This document shows positions 50,263 through 64,000 of a stretch of DNA of 64,000 nt, piece by piece (position 1 is the stretch's first letter; each line of letters begins with the position of its first letter). The notes under the pieces were generated by a model, which did not search any database, was not told the origin of the DNA, and was given only the letters and a program-made list of their open reading frames with translations. Made by a program: the position numbers and the translations under genes. The DNA comes from Lachnospiraceae bacterium (GTDB lineage Bacteria; Bacillota; Clostridia; Lachnospirales; Lachnospiraceae), in NCBI GenBank assembly GCA_021205385.1, contig JAJPXQ010000003.1, positions 812 to 64,811 on the forward strand, in the 5' to 3' direction.

Positions 50263-51534
50263 ATGAAAATGCCAGCTTCAAATAATAAAATCACATATCT
50301 TGACTTGTTTGCTGGAGCGGGCGGTCTTTCTGAAGGATTCGCCTCAGCGGGGTATCAACCAATAGCTCATGTTGAAATGGATCAGGATGCATGTAGTACG
50401 CTGAAAACCCGTGAGAGCTTTTATTACCTAAAGTCAAATGGAATGATTTGCAAATATATTGATTATCTAAAGGGAAAAATAACGAAGGAGTCTTTCTATG
50501 GTCTTATTCCGGATGGAATTCTAAATTCAGTTATTTGTGAAACGATGAGTGATGAAACTATGCTTTCAATTTTTGAAAGAATAGATTCCACTATGGAAAG
50601 CAGGAATGCAGACCATATTGATTTGATTTTGGGCGGACCACCTTGTCAGGCCTATTCGATGGTTGGAAGAGCTAGGAAAAACATGGAAGGTGATTCAAGA
50701 AATACGCTTTATAAGCTATATTTTCAGGCAATCGAGAAATACAAACCGATTATGTTTGTGTTTGAAAACGTTCCGGGATTGCTGACAGCTGGGAATGGAT
50801 CTTATTTAAAAGAAATATTGTCAGGTTTCAGAGTGCGTGGTTACGAACTGGACTATCATATTTTAAATGCCTCTGATTATGGTGTTCTTCAGAACAGAAA
50901 AAGGATTATTCTTATTGGGTGGCAAAAAGACTCCGGACATGAGTATCCAACTTTGCAAAAAATGTCAAAGGTATATTTGGTTTCGGAACTTTTTTGTGAT
51001 CTTCCTGCGTTGAATCCGGGTCAACAAAAAAATGTATATGCCCATGAGCTGTGTGACGGATATCTTTCTTGTACAGGGATAAGAAAAAAAAACGACGTTT
51101 TGACTTGGCATGTTGCCCGTACAAACCTTGAACGGGATCGAAATATATACCGGTTGGCTATTCGGGCATGGAATAAGGATCATACAAGACTGAAGTATAC
51201 AGACATACCTGATGAATTAGCCACACACAATAATAAGACAAGCTTTTTGGATCGATTTAAAGTTGTTGCACCGGATTTGACAGCTACGCACACGATGGTT
51301 GCTCACATATCAAAGGATGGACATTACTATATACATCCGGATTTGGAGCAGGCAAGGTCTATTTCTGTTCGCGAGGCAGCAAGAATTCAGTCATTCCCGG
51401 ACGACTTTTATTTTGAAGGTTCGCGAACTGCAGCATTTCGACAAATCGGTAATGCGGTGCCCCCTTTATTGGCACAAACAATAGCAAATGCAATAAAGGG
51501 ACAATTCGAAGGAGATGACAGAGGTGGCAAATGA
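50263..51534 (+). CDS. dcm: DNA (cytosine-5) methyltransferase (DrmMII-like)
   Basis: DLFAGAGGL (I), GGPPCQ (IV), FENVPG (VI), QNRKR (VIII), SVREAARIQSFPD (IX), QIGNAVPP (X); RBS AAAGGA. Confidence 0.95.
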   Translation: MKMPASNNKITYLDLFAGAGGLSEGFASAGYQPIAHVEMDQDACSTLKTRESFYYLKSNGMICKYIDYLKGKITKESFYGLIPDGILNSVICETMSDETMLSIFERIDSTMESRNADHIDLILGGPPCQAYSMVGRARKNMEGDSRNTLYKLYFQAIEKYKPIMFVFENVPGLLTAGNGSYLKEILSGFRVRGYELDYHILNASDYGVLQNRKRIILIGWQKDSGHEYPTLQKMSKVYLVSELFCDLPALNPGQQKNVYAHELCDGYLSCTGIRKKNDVLTWHVARTNLERDRNIYRLAIRAWNKDHTRLKYTDIPDELATHNNKTSFLDRFKVVAPDLTATHTMVAHISKDGHYYIHPDLEQARSISVREAARIQSFPDDFYFEGSRTAAFRQIGNAVPPLLAQTIANAIKGQFEGDDRGGK

Positions 51535-53563
51535 TAAATCTCTGAATCAATTTTATCAGAACTTTATGGAAGAAGTATTGGTTGCATCTGACGTGGAAAC
51601 AAGCGGATGGAACAAAGATGATTTCCTGACATCTATAATGTTGGAATATCTTGAGGAAACAGGCGAAGTTACTGATTCAATTATGTGCCCGTTCAGAAGC
51701 TATGGTTTACAGCTTAATGCGTATGCAATAGATAAAGATTATACCAGTCTGGATCTTTTTGTATCTGTTTATTCTGATAGCGATACTCCGAAGTCTGTAT
51801 CACAGAGTGAAGTGGATGCAGCTATTAAGCGTGCAATCCAACTGTATCAAAAGGCAATTAACGATCTGTATACATCGTTTGAAAAAGACAATGATACTTA
51901 TGAATTTGCAATCACGGTAAATAAACAGAAAAATACGATCAAGTCAGTGAGAGTTTGTGCTCTTACAAATGGACTGGTGAAGCCCATTCCTTTTAAAAAT
52001 ATAACGATTGGTAATGCAGAAATTTCGTTTGCTATCTGGGATATAGACCGACTTTATCGATGTGTTAGTTCTGGTAAGATGCGGGAAACAATTGAAATTG
52101 ACTTCGAAGAGAAATTCGGAGTGACTATTCCTTGTATAGAGAATGGTACCAGTGATAAATATAGCGTTTACTTAGCTATTATCAGTGGAGAACTACTTGC
52201 CTCATTATATGACGAGTATCGTGATCGATTGTTGGAGAAGAATGTAAGATCATTCCTTCAGGTTAAGGGAGCTGTTAATAAAGGAATCAGAGATACGCTC
52301 CGGCATGAACCGGATATGTTTCTGGCATACAATAATGGAATTTCTGTAACAGCTGAAAGTGTGAAGATAGTTCGTGATGAGAACGGCAAACCATCTATCC
52401 GTAGTATTCGGGATATGCAGGTAGTTAATGGCGGTCAGACTACGGCATCTATTTTTAATGCATATCATGATAAAAAAATTGCAGCTGACTTATCGAAGGT
52501 TTTTGTTCAGATGAAGCTTTCCGTAATTACCTCCTCTGAAGATATGGATGAAATTGTACCTCGTATTTCTGCATTCGCAAATACCCAAAACAAGGTTCAA
52601 GTTGCTGACTTTTCTGCAAATGATCCATATCACAGAAGAGTCGAAGAACTCTCCAGAACGATTTGGGCACCTGCGGTTAATGGACTTAAACCTGTTAATT
52701 GGTTTTATGAGCGGGCACGTGGCCAATATGCAGAAATGCTTTCAAGAGAAACAACGACCTTAAGGAGAAAGCAATTTAAAGAGACTCATCCAGTTTTTAC
52801 CAAGACAGACTTGGCTAAATATGAAAATACTTGGGACCAGCTGCCGTATTATGTAAGTGAAGGTGCACAGAAAAATTTTCGTCGCTTTACTTTGCGGGTA
52901 AACGAACATAAGGCTATGCTACCTGACGAAAAATATTATCAGAATCTTGTGGCAAAAGCCATACTGTTCCGCCGGACAGAGAAGCTTGTTCAGCAGCAAC
53001 AGTACGGTGGATATAGAGCAAATATAGTTACCTATACTATTGCTTATTTGTCATATAAAACGGCGCAAAGAATAGATCTGGAAAAAATATGGAAAAATCA
53101 GGCGTTGTCACAGGAACTTGAGCGGGCTATTGTTGATGTTTCCGCTATTGTACGTGATATCATTATCAATCCACCGGGCGGTGCAAATGTTGGCGAGTGG
53201 TGCAAAAAAGAAAAATGTTGGAATGCCGTTAAGGAATGTACATACGTTATTTCTGAAGCACTTCAGGCCGAATTAGTAGTAGTGGGATATGTTTCAATAA
53301 AGCCAACACCTACCAGCAGTATTGAATCTTTGACAGAGGGCGATCAGAAAATAATTGATCAGGCAGCAGCTGTATCACCAGAAGTATGGTTTGCTTTGTC
53401 CAGATGGGCCAAGGAAACTAATAATTTTCAACCATGGTTGAGGAGCATGCTGTTTTCTGTAGGTACGCTGGTTGGACGTGGCCGCAAGCCAAGCATAAAG
53501 CAATCAAGACATGCAATGAAAGCTTTGGAAGATGCAAAAGTAAAGGGTTTTGTTGTAGAATAG
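51515..53563 (+). CDS. AIPR-family (abortive infection phage resistance) protein
   Basis: LLEKNVRSFLQ..GAVNKGIRDTL..PDMFLAYNNGIS, QVVNGGQTTASI, ANTQNKV..ADF, WFYERARGQY. Start may be GTG at 51524; overlaps the dcm stop. Confidence 0.9.
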   Translation: MTEVANDKSLNQFYQNFMEEVLVASDVETSGWNKDDFLTSIMLEYLEETGEVTDSIMCPFRSYGLQLNAYAIDKDYTSLDLFVSVYSDSDTPKSVSQSEVDAAIKRAIQLYQKAINDLYTSFEKDNDTYEFAITVNKQKNTIKSVRVCALTNGLVKPIPFKNITIGNAEISFAIWDIDRLYRCVSSGKMRETIEIDFEEKFGVTIPCIENGTSDKYSVYLAIISGELLASLYDEYRDRLLEKNVRSFLQVKGAVNKGIRDTLRHEPDMFLAYNNGISVTAESVKIVRDENGKPSIRSIRDMQVVNGGQTTASIFNAYHDKKIAADLSKVFVQMKLSVITSSEDMDEIVPRISAFANTQNKVQVADFSANDPYHRRVEELSRTIWAPAVNGLKPVNWFYERARGQYAEMLSRETTTLRRKQFKETHPVFTKTDLAKYENTWDQLPYYVSEGAQKNFRRFTLRVNEHKAMLPDEKYYQNLVAKAILFRRTEKLVQQQQYGGYRANIVTYTIAYLSYKTAQRIDLEKIWKNQALSQELERAIVDVSAIVRDIIINPPGGANVGEWCKKEKCWNAVKECTYVISEALQAELVVVGYVSIKPTPTSSIESLTEGDQKIIDQAAAVSPEVWFALSRWAKETNNFQPWLRSMLFSVGTLVGRGRKPSIKQSRHAMKALEDAKVKGFVVE

Positions 53564-53582
53564 CTTCAAGGAGGATGTCAAG

Positions 53583-63489: not shown

Positions 63490-63509
63490 CAGGGAAGTTG
63501 GGAAGACAA

Positions 63510-64000
63510 ATGATAATTATTCTTTCGCAGAAAATCGATACGGATTCCGTGTATGCTGGTGATGAAGTGTTTAAAACATATCATTATCCGGCAAGATATA
63601 GAAATCAGATTCACGAGGGTGATACCTTTGTTTATTATCAAGGCAATCGTTACGATAAATCGCAAAGATACTACTTTGGAACTGGAAAGATTGGAAAAAT
63701 CCGTCAGGAAGATGAGGAAAATTATTATGCAGAATTGATAAATGTGATTCGGTTTGAGAAAAAAGTTCCTATATATCTTCCGGACGGAGGTTATGTGGAA
63801 CAGATGGGCTATGAAACTGTAAGGAAAAGCATCAATCCTCCCTGGCAATCATCAATAAGGCCTCTTTCTAAAGCAGCCTATGAGTATATGCTTAGCAAAT
63901 CGGGAGGCAAGGAAATAATTGAAAGCTGTAACGCCGATTTGAAGAAGGCAATTCAGCGTTATTACATAGAAAAGGATAAGAATGCTGTTCTTCAGATTCT
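63510..64000 (+). CDS. Partial ORF running off the right edge; N-terminal PUA-like (EVE/SRA-type) domain
   Basis: Not in the ORF track. Open from ATG 63510 to the end: MIIILSQ..YHYPARYRNQIHEGDTFVYYQG..YYFGTGKIGKI..YYAEL..F..KVP..SIRPLSKAAYEYM. Confidence 0.7.
   Translation, partial: MIIILSQKIDTDSVYAGDEVFKTYHYPARYRNQIHEGDTFVYYQGNRYDKSQRYYFGTGKIGKIRQEDEENYYAELINVIRFEKKVPIYLPDGGYVEQMGYETVRKSINPPWQSSIRPLSKAAYEYMLSKSGGKEIIESCNADLKKAIQRYYIEKDKNAVLQI

Follow-up and report, generated by a model that had tools for sequence, protein, structure and literature searches.

The distal part of the window, by which we mean the whole 64,000-nucleotide stretch of DNA analysed here, is a low-GC island (50263-64000, GC 0.385-0.43) that follows upstream sequence with a GC content of about 0.54 (mostly 0.50-0.59). 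The island harbours seven co-directional genes on the + strand, in the order drmMII/dcm, AIPR, DrmE-family, NERD plus SF1 helicase, drmA, drmB and p178, with junctions of -11, +19, +8, -11, +1 and +20 nt from 5' to 3'. Open reading frames, HMM identities and junctions agree on the gene content, gene order and single operon that an earlier sequence-only reading had proposed. In the following list, starts that differ from the first start codon of the open reading frame were fixed via orthologue comparison.

50197-50262, + strand: leader 5' of dcm, from which point on the closest related operons are similar at the nucleotide level
50263-51534, + strand: drmMII/dcm, C5-cytosine DNA methyltransferase, seemingly intact
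51524-53563 (ORF from 51515), + strand: AIPR-family protein (AIPR_N and AIPR), intact
53583-56162, + strand: DrmE-family protein, 859 aa, intact
56171-58219, + strand: NERD (PD-(D/E)xK) plus SF1/UvrD-like helicase, pseudogene in three ORFs (tblastn, alignment to the reference locus L001)
56531-56840, no strand assigned: MITE-like insertion of about 300 bp inside the NERD domain (alignment to L001, folding)
57699-57700, + strand: 1-nt deletion that shifts the frame within the helicase part (alignment column 1551 against L001)
58209-61643, + strand: drmA, YprA-family SF2 helicase of the short, class 2-type form, intact
61645-63489 (ORF from 61618), + strand: drmB, DUF1998/MZB zinc-binding partner of DrmA, intact
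63510-64000 and beyond, + strand: p178, EVE/PUA-like protein of 178 aa, with 163 of about 178 codons before the window end

When window positions 46000-50400 were compared with the fetched related loci by blastn, similarity to four of them (L067-L070, 88%) started at 50197, and no sequence 5' of this position was common to the fetched loci. A promoter scan of the leader performed no better than on shuffled sequence.

The methyltransferase matches Pfam DNA_methylase (1.4e-64), TIGR00675 dcm (187 bits) and, over its full length, the PADLOC DrmMII model PDLC02649 (1.1e-160), and its translation displays the PCQ, ENV, QxRxR and GNAVPP motifs. DrmA is recognized by the PADLOC DrmA model (4.3e-228), matches the DrmA structure PDB 7s9v_A (4e-141) and scores 946 bits with NCBIfam DISARM_DrmAS, just below the cut-off of 950. 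DrmB matches the PADLOC DrmB model (2.6e-69), NCBIfam DrmB_fam (467 bits, cut-off 240) and Pfam MZB; its homologues are 614 aa long and start at M10 of the window ORF. The operon accordingly holds three hallmarks of class 2 DISARM, namely a C5-cytosine methyltransferase (DrmMII), a YprA-family SF2 helicase (DrmA) and a separate DUF1998/MZB protein (DrmB) that directly follows DrmA after 1 nt, and none of its seven window genes encodes a PLD-family nuclease DrmC. The DrmE-family protein matches NCBIfam NF038316 DrmE_fam over its full length (476 bits, cut-off 80), whereas its score with the canonical equivalog NF038323 is 36 bits (cut-off 250). Pfam DrmE_C is matched at 2e-09 and the PADLOC DrmE models cover only the C-terminal 170-235 residues; likeness to canonical DrmE is, as far as sequence comparison goes, limited to the C-terminal domain. 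This family comprises 869 clusters at 50% identity, and a search for relatives with a solved structure returned none.

The AIPR protein matches Pfam AIPR (3e-102) and AIPR_N (1.1e-37), and reaches 435 bits with NCBIfam MzaE, far under the equivalog cut-off of 1050. As a candidate Mza system, which would combine the MzaE equivalog with the MutL-like MzaB and the Z1-domain MzaC, the operon was rejected, and no other gene in it matches the PADLOC Mza models. The window AIPR protein carries an invariant NGGQTT motif that resembles the DGQQR-type motif of the ParB superfamily, and AbiU1, AIPR and COG1479 have been grouped with ParB-like nucleases (PMC3632139). A Pfam comparison relaxed to E = 10 gives no match to DUF262 or ParB, and the AlphaFold model of the window protein (pLDDT 49.7) is unusable.

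The window copy of the NERD-helicase gene is disrupted: residues 1-124, 120-411 and 408-582 of intact orthologues fall in three window frames by tblastn, and the pieces match Pfam NERD (2.9e-08) and UvrD_C_2. The intact orthologue of L001 (581 aa) matches the PADLOC RT-associated NERD-helicase over its full length (2.2e-35) as well as the C3a187 'NERD+UvrD', AbiO and Nhi families, the Nhi and AbiO matches lying mainly in the P-loop region. Across 42 NERD-helicases (the reference L001 protein and 41 orthologues, 33-67% identity), conservation reaches at least 95% in the D..ExK motif, in Walker A (AGTGKT) and Walker B (DExQD), and in later helicase motifs. The earlier identification as a NERD-SF1 helicase is borne out for the gene, which joins an N-terminal NERD domain with D..ExK to an SF1 core with Walker A and B, although the window copy itself is a pseudogene with two lesions relative to L001. 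One is an excess of 304 bases at 56531-56834, with the short sequence AAGCAC directly duplicated on its flanks (56531-36 and 56835-40). This MITE-like insertion folds as a single long imperfect hairpin (-122.7 kcal/mol, z = -6.55) and has no match in Rfam; a second copy, diverged but identical in its ends, lies in an unrelated contig of metagenome origin (L083, about 4385-4685). The other is the 1-nt deletion, which switches the frame between orthologue residues 408 and 411 and, taken alone, may be a homopolymer sequencing error. Insertion and frameshift together inactivate the NERD-helicase in the window genome. As the other six visible genes of the operon are intact, the system would be weakened or running without this protein.

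Homologues of p178 (257 sequences) contain no Pfam domain, and p178 itself has no sequence-level match in Pfam, NCBIfam or PADLOC. Its AlphaFold model (pLDDT 86) retrieves class 1 DISARM DrmA (7s9w_A, 7s9v_A), the McrB N-terminal domain (6n0s), MJECL36 (2p5d) and PH1033 (1wmm) as top Foldseek matches, all with a probability of 0.99-1.00, the query TM score being 0.43-0.50 for 7s9w_A, 6n0s, 2p5d and 1wmm. The model points to a PUA-like β-barrel, an EVE/PUA-like reader fold followed by a helical tail. The label 'PUA-like' initially given to this last gene is therefore supported at the fold level, while the suggestion of a modification-reading nuclease is not, as the predicted fold includes no nuclease domain.

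A genome scan with two peptide patterns yielded 50 GTDB species genomes and samples only the DrmB clade that carries these patterns, which is not a census. The order dcm-AIPR-drmE-NERD-helicase-drmA-drmB-(p178)-(vsr) recurs in these genomes and in metagenome contigs, from phyla that include Firmicutes, Bacteroidota and Proteobacteria/Desulfobacterota, one Kosmotogaceae MAG and one Actinomycetes MAG. An intact NERD-helicase gene occupies the slot between drmE and drmA in 41 of the 44 species loci that were readable, including loci with a DrmB identity as low as 39%. For AIPR, 43 species loci were readable, of which 32 carry the gene and form a subclade and 10 lack it; AIPR remains adjacent to drmE where dcm sits 3' of drmB (L048, L054). 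Identity to the window proteins follows DrmB identity (rho 0.86 for the NERD-helicase, 0.84 for AIPR, 0.81 for DrmE and 0.95 for DrmA). Given this recurrence and co-divergence, the two extra genes appear to belong to the system and are not the sporadic passengers that had been envisaged as a counter-argument. The comparison further suggests that the universally conserved extra gene is the NERD-helicase and not AIPR, which, like the EVE-like protein, is only a subclade addition; the earlier interpretation, upheld in part, needs correcting here. Since AIPR also occurs with Dcm and Vsr in many unrelated restriction-modification (R-M) operons (PMC2292703) and is missing from the loci mentioned above, it could be a semi-independent module. 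The NERD-helicase is also the gene most often lost, with seven independent losses or disruptions among the examined loci that leave the remaining genes intact, which argues against its indispensability and makes it a less convincing effector in place of DrmC.

We detected no drmC among the seven window genes with Pfam or PADLOC, and the operon continues past the window end. In the closest relatives, whose p178 is 90% identical, p178 is followed by vsr, then by unrelated genes and an integrase of the Tn916 type, in agreement with the absence of drmC noted at the outset. A search of about 65 related loci, including up to 10 kb of flanking sequence, yielded no ORF with an HKD/PLD motif, and the PLD family is absent from the precomputed Pfam matches of related metagenome loci and not recurrent among 148 flanking ORFs; overall, about 80 related loci contain no PLD (drmC) gene. 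The same 148 ORFs reveal no conservation at all of genes beyond the operon. Relaxase, ArdC and VapE genes lie 5' of the operon in related metagenome loci. A single AIPR allele accounts for 667 indexed blocks of the assembly collection. The contigs read for this allele, some of them from human-gut metagenome assemblies, have the operon behind ICE genes. We read this as a DrmC-less, NERD-helicase-bearing class 2 DISARM variant that travels on mobile elements.

These observations bear on three other explanations of the locus. An ordinary class 2 DISARM with drmC just past the window end would suit a window that stops inside the gene after drmB, but it is highly improbable in view of the vsr gene, unrelated genes and integrase at that place in the closest relatives, the lack of HKD-motif ORFs in the roughly 65 loci with their flanks, and the lack of a recurrent PLD family in flanking ORFs and Pfam lists. 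The operon might also be a decaying relic that has lost its defence function in the window genome, where only the methyltransferase would still matter. Such decay is favoured by the mobile-element insertion and the second inactivating lesion in a gene conserved throughout the lineage; we nevertheless consider it improbable because the remaining six visible genes have kept their full length and catalytic motifs, and several relatives devoid of the NERD-helicase keep all other genes intact, which suggests continuing selection.

A defence-island mosaic would instead bring together a Dcm/AIPR/Vsr R-M-like unit, a stand-alone NERD-helicase (Nhi/AbiO or 'NERD+UvrD') and a minimal DrmC-less DISARM (DrmE-DrmA-DrmB). 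The NERD-helicase indeed matches families of other systems (the PADLOC RT-associated NERD-helicase, C3a187, AbiO and Nhi) and can be lost with the remaining operon intact, and a Lactiplantibacillus plantarum plasmid locus comprises dcm, an 801-aa hypothetical protein (putative drmE), drmA and drmB without either extra gene. Against this composite stand the constant slot of the NERD-helicase between drmE and drmA in nearly all readable species loci, also at a DrmB identity as low as 39%, its abutting or overlapping neighbours in the window and closest relatives, the co-divergence of NERD-helicase and AIPR with DrmB as tightly as that of DrmE, the persistence of AIPR beside drmE upon relocation of dcm, and the complete lack of conservation of the genes flanking the operon. 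We regard a mosaic as unlikely, if still worth weighing.

We therefore favour, as the probable interpretation, a horizontally acquired operon that is a DISARM class 2 type defence operon of a distinct conserved lineage. The core of this lineage consists of the DrmE-family protein, the NERD(PD-(D/E)xK)-SF1 helicase, DrmA and DrmB with DrmMII, usually accompanied by Vsr and lacking DrmC, whereas AIPR, just 5' of drmE, and the EVE/PUA-like protein, just 3' of drmB, are additions of a largely Firmicutes subclade. The lineage is widespread and apparently undescribed: we found no description of the architecture in the literature searched.

We infer every biochemical step of the mechanism proposed here by analogy with studied DISARM systems. 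DrmMII would mark host DNA with 5mC, and Vsr would repair the T:G deamination damage that arises from this mark. The DrmA-DrmB helicase complex and DrmE would engage incoming unmethylated DNA, and the NERD-helicase may provide the DNA-cutting or unwinding activity thought to come from DrmC elsewhere. The EVE-like protein may read modified bases in trans, a reading role also predicted for its fused counterpart in class 1 DrmA, to whose N-terminus Bell et al. 2025 (bioRxiv 10.1101/2025.09.15.676423) assign an EVE-like domain. AIPR would be an accessory; the earlier reading conjectured that it adds an abortive or R-M-guard layer, and that the nuclease role passed from DrmC to the NERD-helicase and/or a modification-reading nuclease. 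Neither studied class needs drmC, and class 2 depends on drmA, drmB and drmE (bioRxiv 10.1101/2021.12.28.474362).

Somewhat more tentatively, with a probability that we place a little short of even, the lineage may represent a third, unnamed DISARM class, in which a PD-(D/E)xK-SF1 fusion replaces DrmC in the drmE-drmA-drmB core, a free EVE-like reader acts in trans and AIPR is a fourth conserved partner. If so, it would rank among the defence systems most often carried by integrative mobile elements in the Firmicutes of the human gut. Abundant as it is, and lying behind ICE genes in contigs that include gut assemblies, the operon probably influences how phages and plasmids move among gut Firmicutes. 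By dropping DrmC, keeping a different nuclease-helicase under purifying selection and encoding the EVE-like reader separately, the lineage offers a natural experiment on the activities that DISARM needs.

Class 2 DISARM of the Bacillus paralicheniformis type is reported to consist of drmE, drmA, drmB, drmC and drmMII (Ofir et al. 2018). The present lineage shares with class 2 the short-type DrmA, DrmB, a full-length DrmMII-matching C5 methyltransferase, the DrmE_C domain and the layout of one operon, with all genes in the same direction, within a defence or mobile setting. It differs by the lack of the PLD nuclease DrmC, the conserved NERD-SF1 helicase between drmE and drmA, the 5'-terminal position of the methyltransferase in the window and most relatives, the addition of AIPR, the EVE-like protein and Vsr, and, in the window, a DrmE far under the canonical equivalog (36 against 250 bits). 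The published PADLOC definition of type II DISARM demands DrmC (PMC9252829), so loci of the present type would not be called type II by that rule.

Class 1 DISARM (Serratia; DrmAB structures 7s9v and 7s9w) has in common with our operon the DrmA-DrmB core and, according to the p178 model, whose best matches are class 1 DrmA chains, an EVE-like modified-base reader fold tied to the helicase. This fold is fused to DrmA in class 1, whereas it probably resides in a separate 178-aa protein here, and the class 1 components DrmD (SNF2), DrmMI (N6-adenine methyltransferase) and DrmC are missing. The RT-associated NERD-helicase of DRT systems, C3a187, Nhi and AbiO share the build of an N-terminal NERD-type PD-(D/E)xK domain and an SF1 helicase; the present operon includes no reverse transcriptase, and our gene is embedded in a DISARM core instead of standing alone. 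Mza and other Dcm/Vsr/AIPR R-M operons (Iyer, Abhiman and Aravind 2008) likewise place AIPR beside a C5 methyltransferase and include Vsr. Mza contains a MutL/MORC-like ATPase and a Z1-domain protein, both absent from our operon, and, in contrast to the R-M operons, AIPR here tracks drmE and not dcm.

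The 50263-64000 region contains seven genes in a single orientation, listed below with gene starts set to match those of their orthologues.

Genes of the DISARM-like operon in the window
50263-51534, + strand: dcm, C5-cytosine methyltransferase gene (PADLOC DrmMII, 1.1e-160)
51524-53563, + strand: AIPR gene (Pfam AIPR, 3e-102; AIPR_N, 1.1e-37)
53583-56162, + strand: DrmE-family gene (NCBIfam DrmE_fam, 476 bits, whole protein)
56171-58219, + strand: NERD plus SF1 helicase gene, reading as three ORFs
58209-61643, + strand: drmA (PADLOC, 4.3e-228; NCBIfam DISARM_DrmAS, 946 bits, cut-off 950; solved DrmA structure 7s9v_A, 4e-141)
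61645-63489, + strand: drmB (DrmB_fam, 467 bits)
63510 to beyond the window end, + strand: gene for p178, an EVE/PUA-like small protein

Every long ORF between ~50.2 kb and the window end lies on the + strand, and consecutive genes are joined by 11-nt overlaps or separated by gaps of 1-20 nt. This layout is far beyond chance and, together with the HMM matches, confirms the tightly packed co-directional operon described in the sequence-only reading. Because the DrmA score falls under the DISARM_DrmAS cut-off, automatic annotation may leave this protein unnamed, yet it is clearly a DrmA.

The GC content is 0.385-0.43 from ~50.2 kb to the window end and 0.50-0.59 over most of the upstream window. 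The upstream genes, which encode the sporulation protein SipL, a MurF-like ligase, Ddl, an IspE-like kinase and a NUDIX protein, are ordinary Clostridia chromosome genes, and the presence of SipL and cell-wall genes indicates a Clostridia chromosome. The closest related operons resemble the window at the nucleotide level only from 50197 onwards, just 66 bp 5' of dcm, which points to a horizontally acquired cassette. Sites returned by a promoter and terminator scan were no more numerous than in shuffled sequence, and we did not draw operon boundaries from them; an Rfam search of 47000-64000 gave no match. The interval 46977-49813, which separates the core genes from the operon, contains four unrelated ORFs. 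One encodes a DUF2971 protein that weakly matches PADLOC candidate PDC-S31 and another a YgjP-like metallopeptidase; the remaining two match no family and lie in a stretch of intermediate GC (0.47). These ORFs may belong to a wider defence island or be left over from the vehicle that delivered the operon.

The window copy of the operon is damaged. Intact NERD-helicase orthologues of 576-582 aa map to three frames of the window gene, and alignment with the related locus L001, which encodes an intact 581-aa protein, reveals two lesions: an additional 304 bases within the NERD domain (56531-56834) and the loss of 1 nt after 57699. The other six visible operon genes are full-length with visible catalytic motifs. 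A short direct duplication brackets the insertion (56531-56840, ~300 bp), whose GC content exceeds that of the island and is near that of the host. The inserted element forms one long imperfect hairpin when folded (z = -6.55) and matches no Rfam family. A first metagenome scan for the element found none; a second recovered a single diverged copy sharing its ends (TGTAAAT...ATTTCTACAAG), located in an intergenic region of an unrelated metagenome contig (L083, ~4385-4685, - strand). The inserted DNA looks like a MITE; it also contains repeated GTGCA(C/T) motifs.

The window DrmB has no exact-sequence record, and we used its relatives instead. DrmB homologues of 66-91% identity are common in metagenomes, and the order dcm-AIPR-drmE-NERD-helicase-drmA-drmB recurs in the contigs that carry them as well as in contigs reached through AIPR and p178 searches. 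Pattern-seeded scanning of GTDB species, with one genome for each, yielded 50 loci from Firmicutes, Bacteroidota, Proteobacteria/Desulfobacterota, one Kosmotogaceae MAG and one Actinomycetes MAG; its two-peptide filter samples only the DrmB clade carrying these peptides, and the counts are not a census. The NERD-helicase gene, between drmE and drmA, is intact in 41 of these loci, broken or a remnant in one, absent from two and not readable in six (41/44 readable loci intact). The corresponding numbers for AIPR are 32, one, ten and seven (32/43), whereas p178 and vsr occur in ~16 and ~26 loci, respectively. The NERD-helicase is still present at DrmB identities as low as 39%, and AIPR was found only where DrmB identity is at least 53%. 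AIPR adjoins drmE even where dcm is relocated downstream of drmB (L048 and L054), and the most distant loci comprise dcm and/or vsr, or unrelated ORFs, followed by drmE-NERD-helicase-drmA-drmB. Cultured carriers of the operon include Robinsoniella peoriensis CCUG 48729 (L024), Hominiventricola aquisgranensis CLA-AA-H78B (L031) and Clostridium bowmanii DSM 14206 (L049).

The operon proteins also diverge together: the identity of each to its window counterpart correlates with that of DrmB, with rho values of 0.95 for DrmA, 0.86 for the NERD-helicase, 0.84 for AIPR and 0.81 for DrmE. Across 42 NERD-helicase sequences (the L001 reference and 41 orthologues, 33-67% identical), the NERD motifs GE.DF and EVK, the Walker A (AGTGKT) and Walker B (DE.QD) motifs and later helicase motifs are at least 95% conserved. 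The flanking genes are unconserved: among 148 flanking ORFs, each Pfam family is represented five times at most, and the recurring families are HTH regulators and integrases. Neither extra gene is therefore sporadic, and the species-locus counts and co-divergence with DrmB rule out the NERD-helicase as a sporadic passenger; judged from these comparisons, it is core to the architecture.

The NERD-helicase gene is nevertheless the one most often lost (in the window, L002, L005, L014-16, L021, L025 and L043), through seven independent events that each left the remaining operon intact. The protein may thus enhance the system rather than be required, like DrmC, the PLD-family nuclease of canonical DISARM. 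Splits of other operon genes are far rarer: drmA is divided in two in L039 and L073, as is vsr in the Robinsoniella loci L024/L011, and L032 has p178 in three fragments.

No PLD gene is present among the window genes, and drmC does not lie just downstream in the relatives. In the closest of these, p178 is followed by vsr (146 aa), unrelated genes and a Tn916-type integrase. When all ORFs of at least 100 aa from 66 loci and the window were screened by regular expression for the HKD motif of PLD nucleases, nothing convincing emerged, and the PLD family is missing both from the Pfam hits precomputed for the metagenome loci and from the recurrent flanking families. The absence of drmC first noted within the window holds, and on the evidence of these relatives we reject its placement immediately beyond the window end. 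In three loci (L008-L010, 12033-15058) with an allele whose DrmB is 81% identical, drmB is followed not by p178 and vsr but by a gene for a 712-aa NA-iREase2-domain protein and then one for a RelA/SpoT-domain protein; the two products may form a different accessory or effector pair.

Related operons are cargo of integrative mobile elements. One common allele, from human-gut metagenomes, lies directly downstream of genes for a relaxase, ArdC, a VapE(-like) primase and a topoisomerase (L071-L073, 1-10008), a set typical of ICEs. This ICE version has an 80-aa methyltransferase fragment 5' of dcm, and its AIPR is indexed in 667 blocks of the assembly collection. Loci L077-L081 carry a Tn916-type integrase downstream of 8983. 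In the plasmid collection, all DrmB relatives are at most 37% identical and none of three inspected loci shows the architecture. One of them, on the mobilizable Lactiplantibacillus plantarum plasmid pMK02 (L076, 3845-12926), consists of four genes, whose products are Dcm, a hypothetical protein of 801 aa, a helicase and a DUF1998 protein. It lacks drmC, the NERD-helicase and AIPR; DrmC-less class 2-like loci thus exist outside this lineage.

None of the 257 p178 homologues has a Pfam domain, and p178 has no NCBIfam or PADLOC match. Its AlphaFold model (39 sequences; mean pLDDT 86) comprises a beta-barrel followed by three helices. The top Foldseek matches in the PDB, all with probability 0.99-1.00, are class 1 DrmA chains 7s9w_A and 7s9v_A, the Staphylothermus McrB N-terminal domain (6n0s), MJECL36 (2p5d) and PH1033 (1wmm), the last three of which are EVE/PUA-like folds. 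The match to DrmA probably reflects the N-terminus of the class 1 protein, which has been described as EVE-like and as a predicted reader of modified bases (Bell et al. 2025, bioRxiv 10.1101/2025.09.15.676423). The PUA-like label of the sequence-only reading is thereby supported at the fold level, whereas its suggestion of a modification-reading nuclease is unsupported, since p178 has no nuclease domain.

AIPR genes are frequent in R-M operons that also encode Dcm and Vsr (PMC2292703), and AIPR has been classed with AbiU1/COG1479 as ParB-like (PMC3632139). Its invariant NGGQTT motif recalls the DUF262 DGQQR motif, and a permissive Pfam scan found no DUF262 or ParB link. The AIPR model, built on a shallow alignment (85-94% identity), has a mean pLDDT of 49.7, too low for fold comparison. 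Searches of PDB sequences with AIPR, DrmE and a 41-sequence DrmE profile returned no informative relative. The DrmE family comprises 869 clusters at 50% identity, with members uniformly ~850-880 aa long and without a relative of solved structure; Pfam assigns DrmE_C only to this family.

In DISARM, self DNA is marked by the methyltransferase; class 2 systems cannot function without drmA, drmB and drmE, and drmC is dispensable in class 1 and class 2 (bioRxiv 10.1101/2021.12.28.474362). Given these facts, the most economical reading of the locus would be a single methylation-guided system, for which we infer all the biochemical steps. DrmMII would methylate host DNA and Vsr would limit the mutational cost; DrmAB and DrmE would engage unmethylated incoming DNA, the NERD-helicase would add nuclease and translocase activity, p178 would read base modification in trans and AIPR would act as an accessory. 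The main rival, in which independent modules form a mosaic, is less favoured, since the extra genes keep a fixed place inside the operon and co-diverge with DrmB.

In the full-text library searched for DISARM together with AIPR, NERD or DrmE, this architecture is not described; that NCBIfam has a DrmE_fam model shows that the DrmE family is known to curators. Compared with class 2 DISARM, the window locus has four of the five genes, DrmE at family level only, as it belongs to the broader NCBIfam family outside the canonical equivalog, and it lacks DrmC, which the PADLOC type II rule requires (PMC9252829). It is distinct from Mza, DRT and Nhi, sharing only single modules with each. Although the window copy is damaged, these operons represent a well-defined, abundant and testable DISARM lineage.
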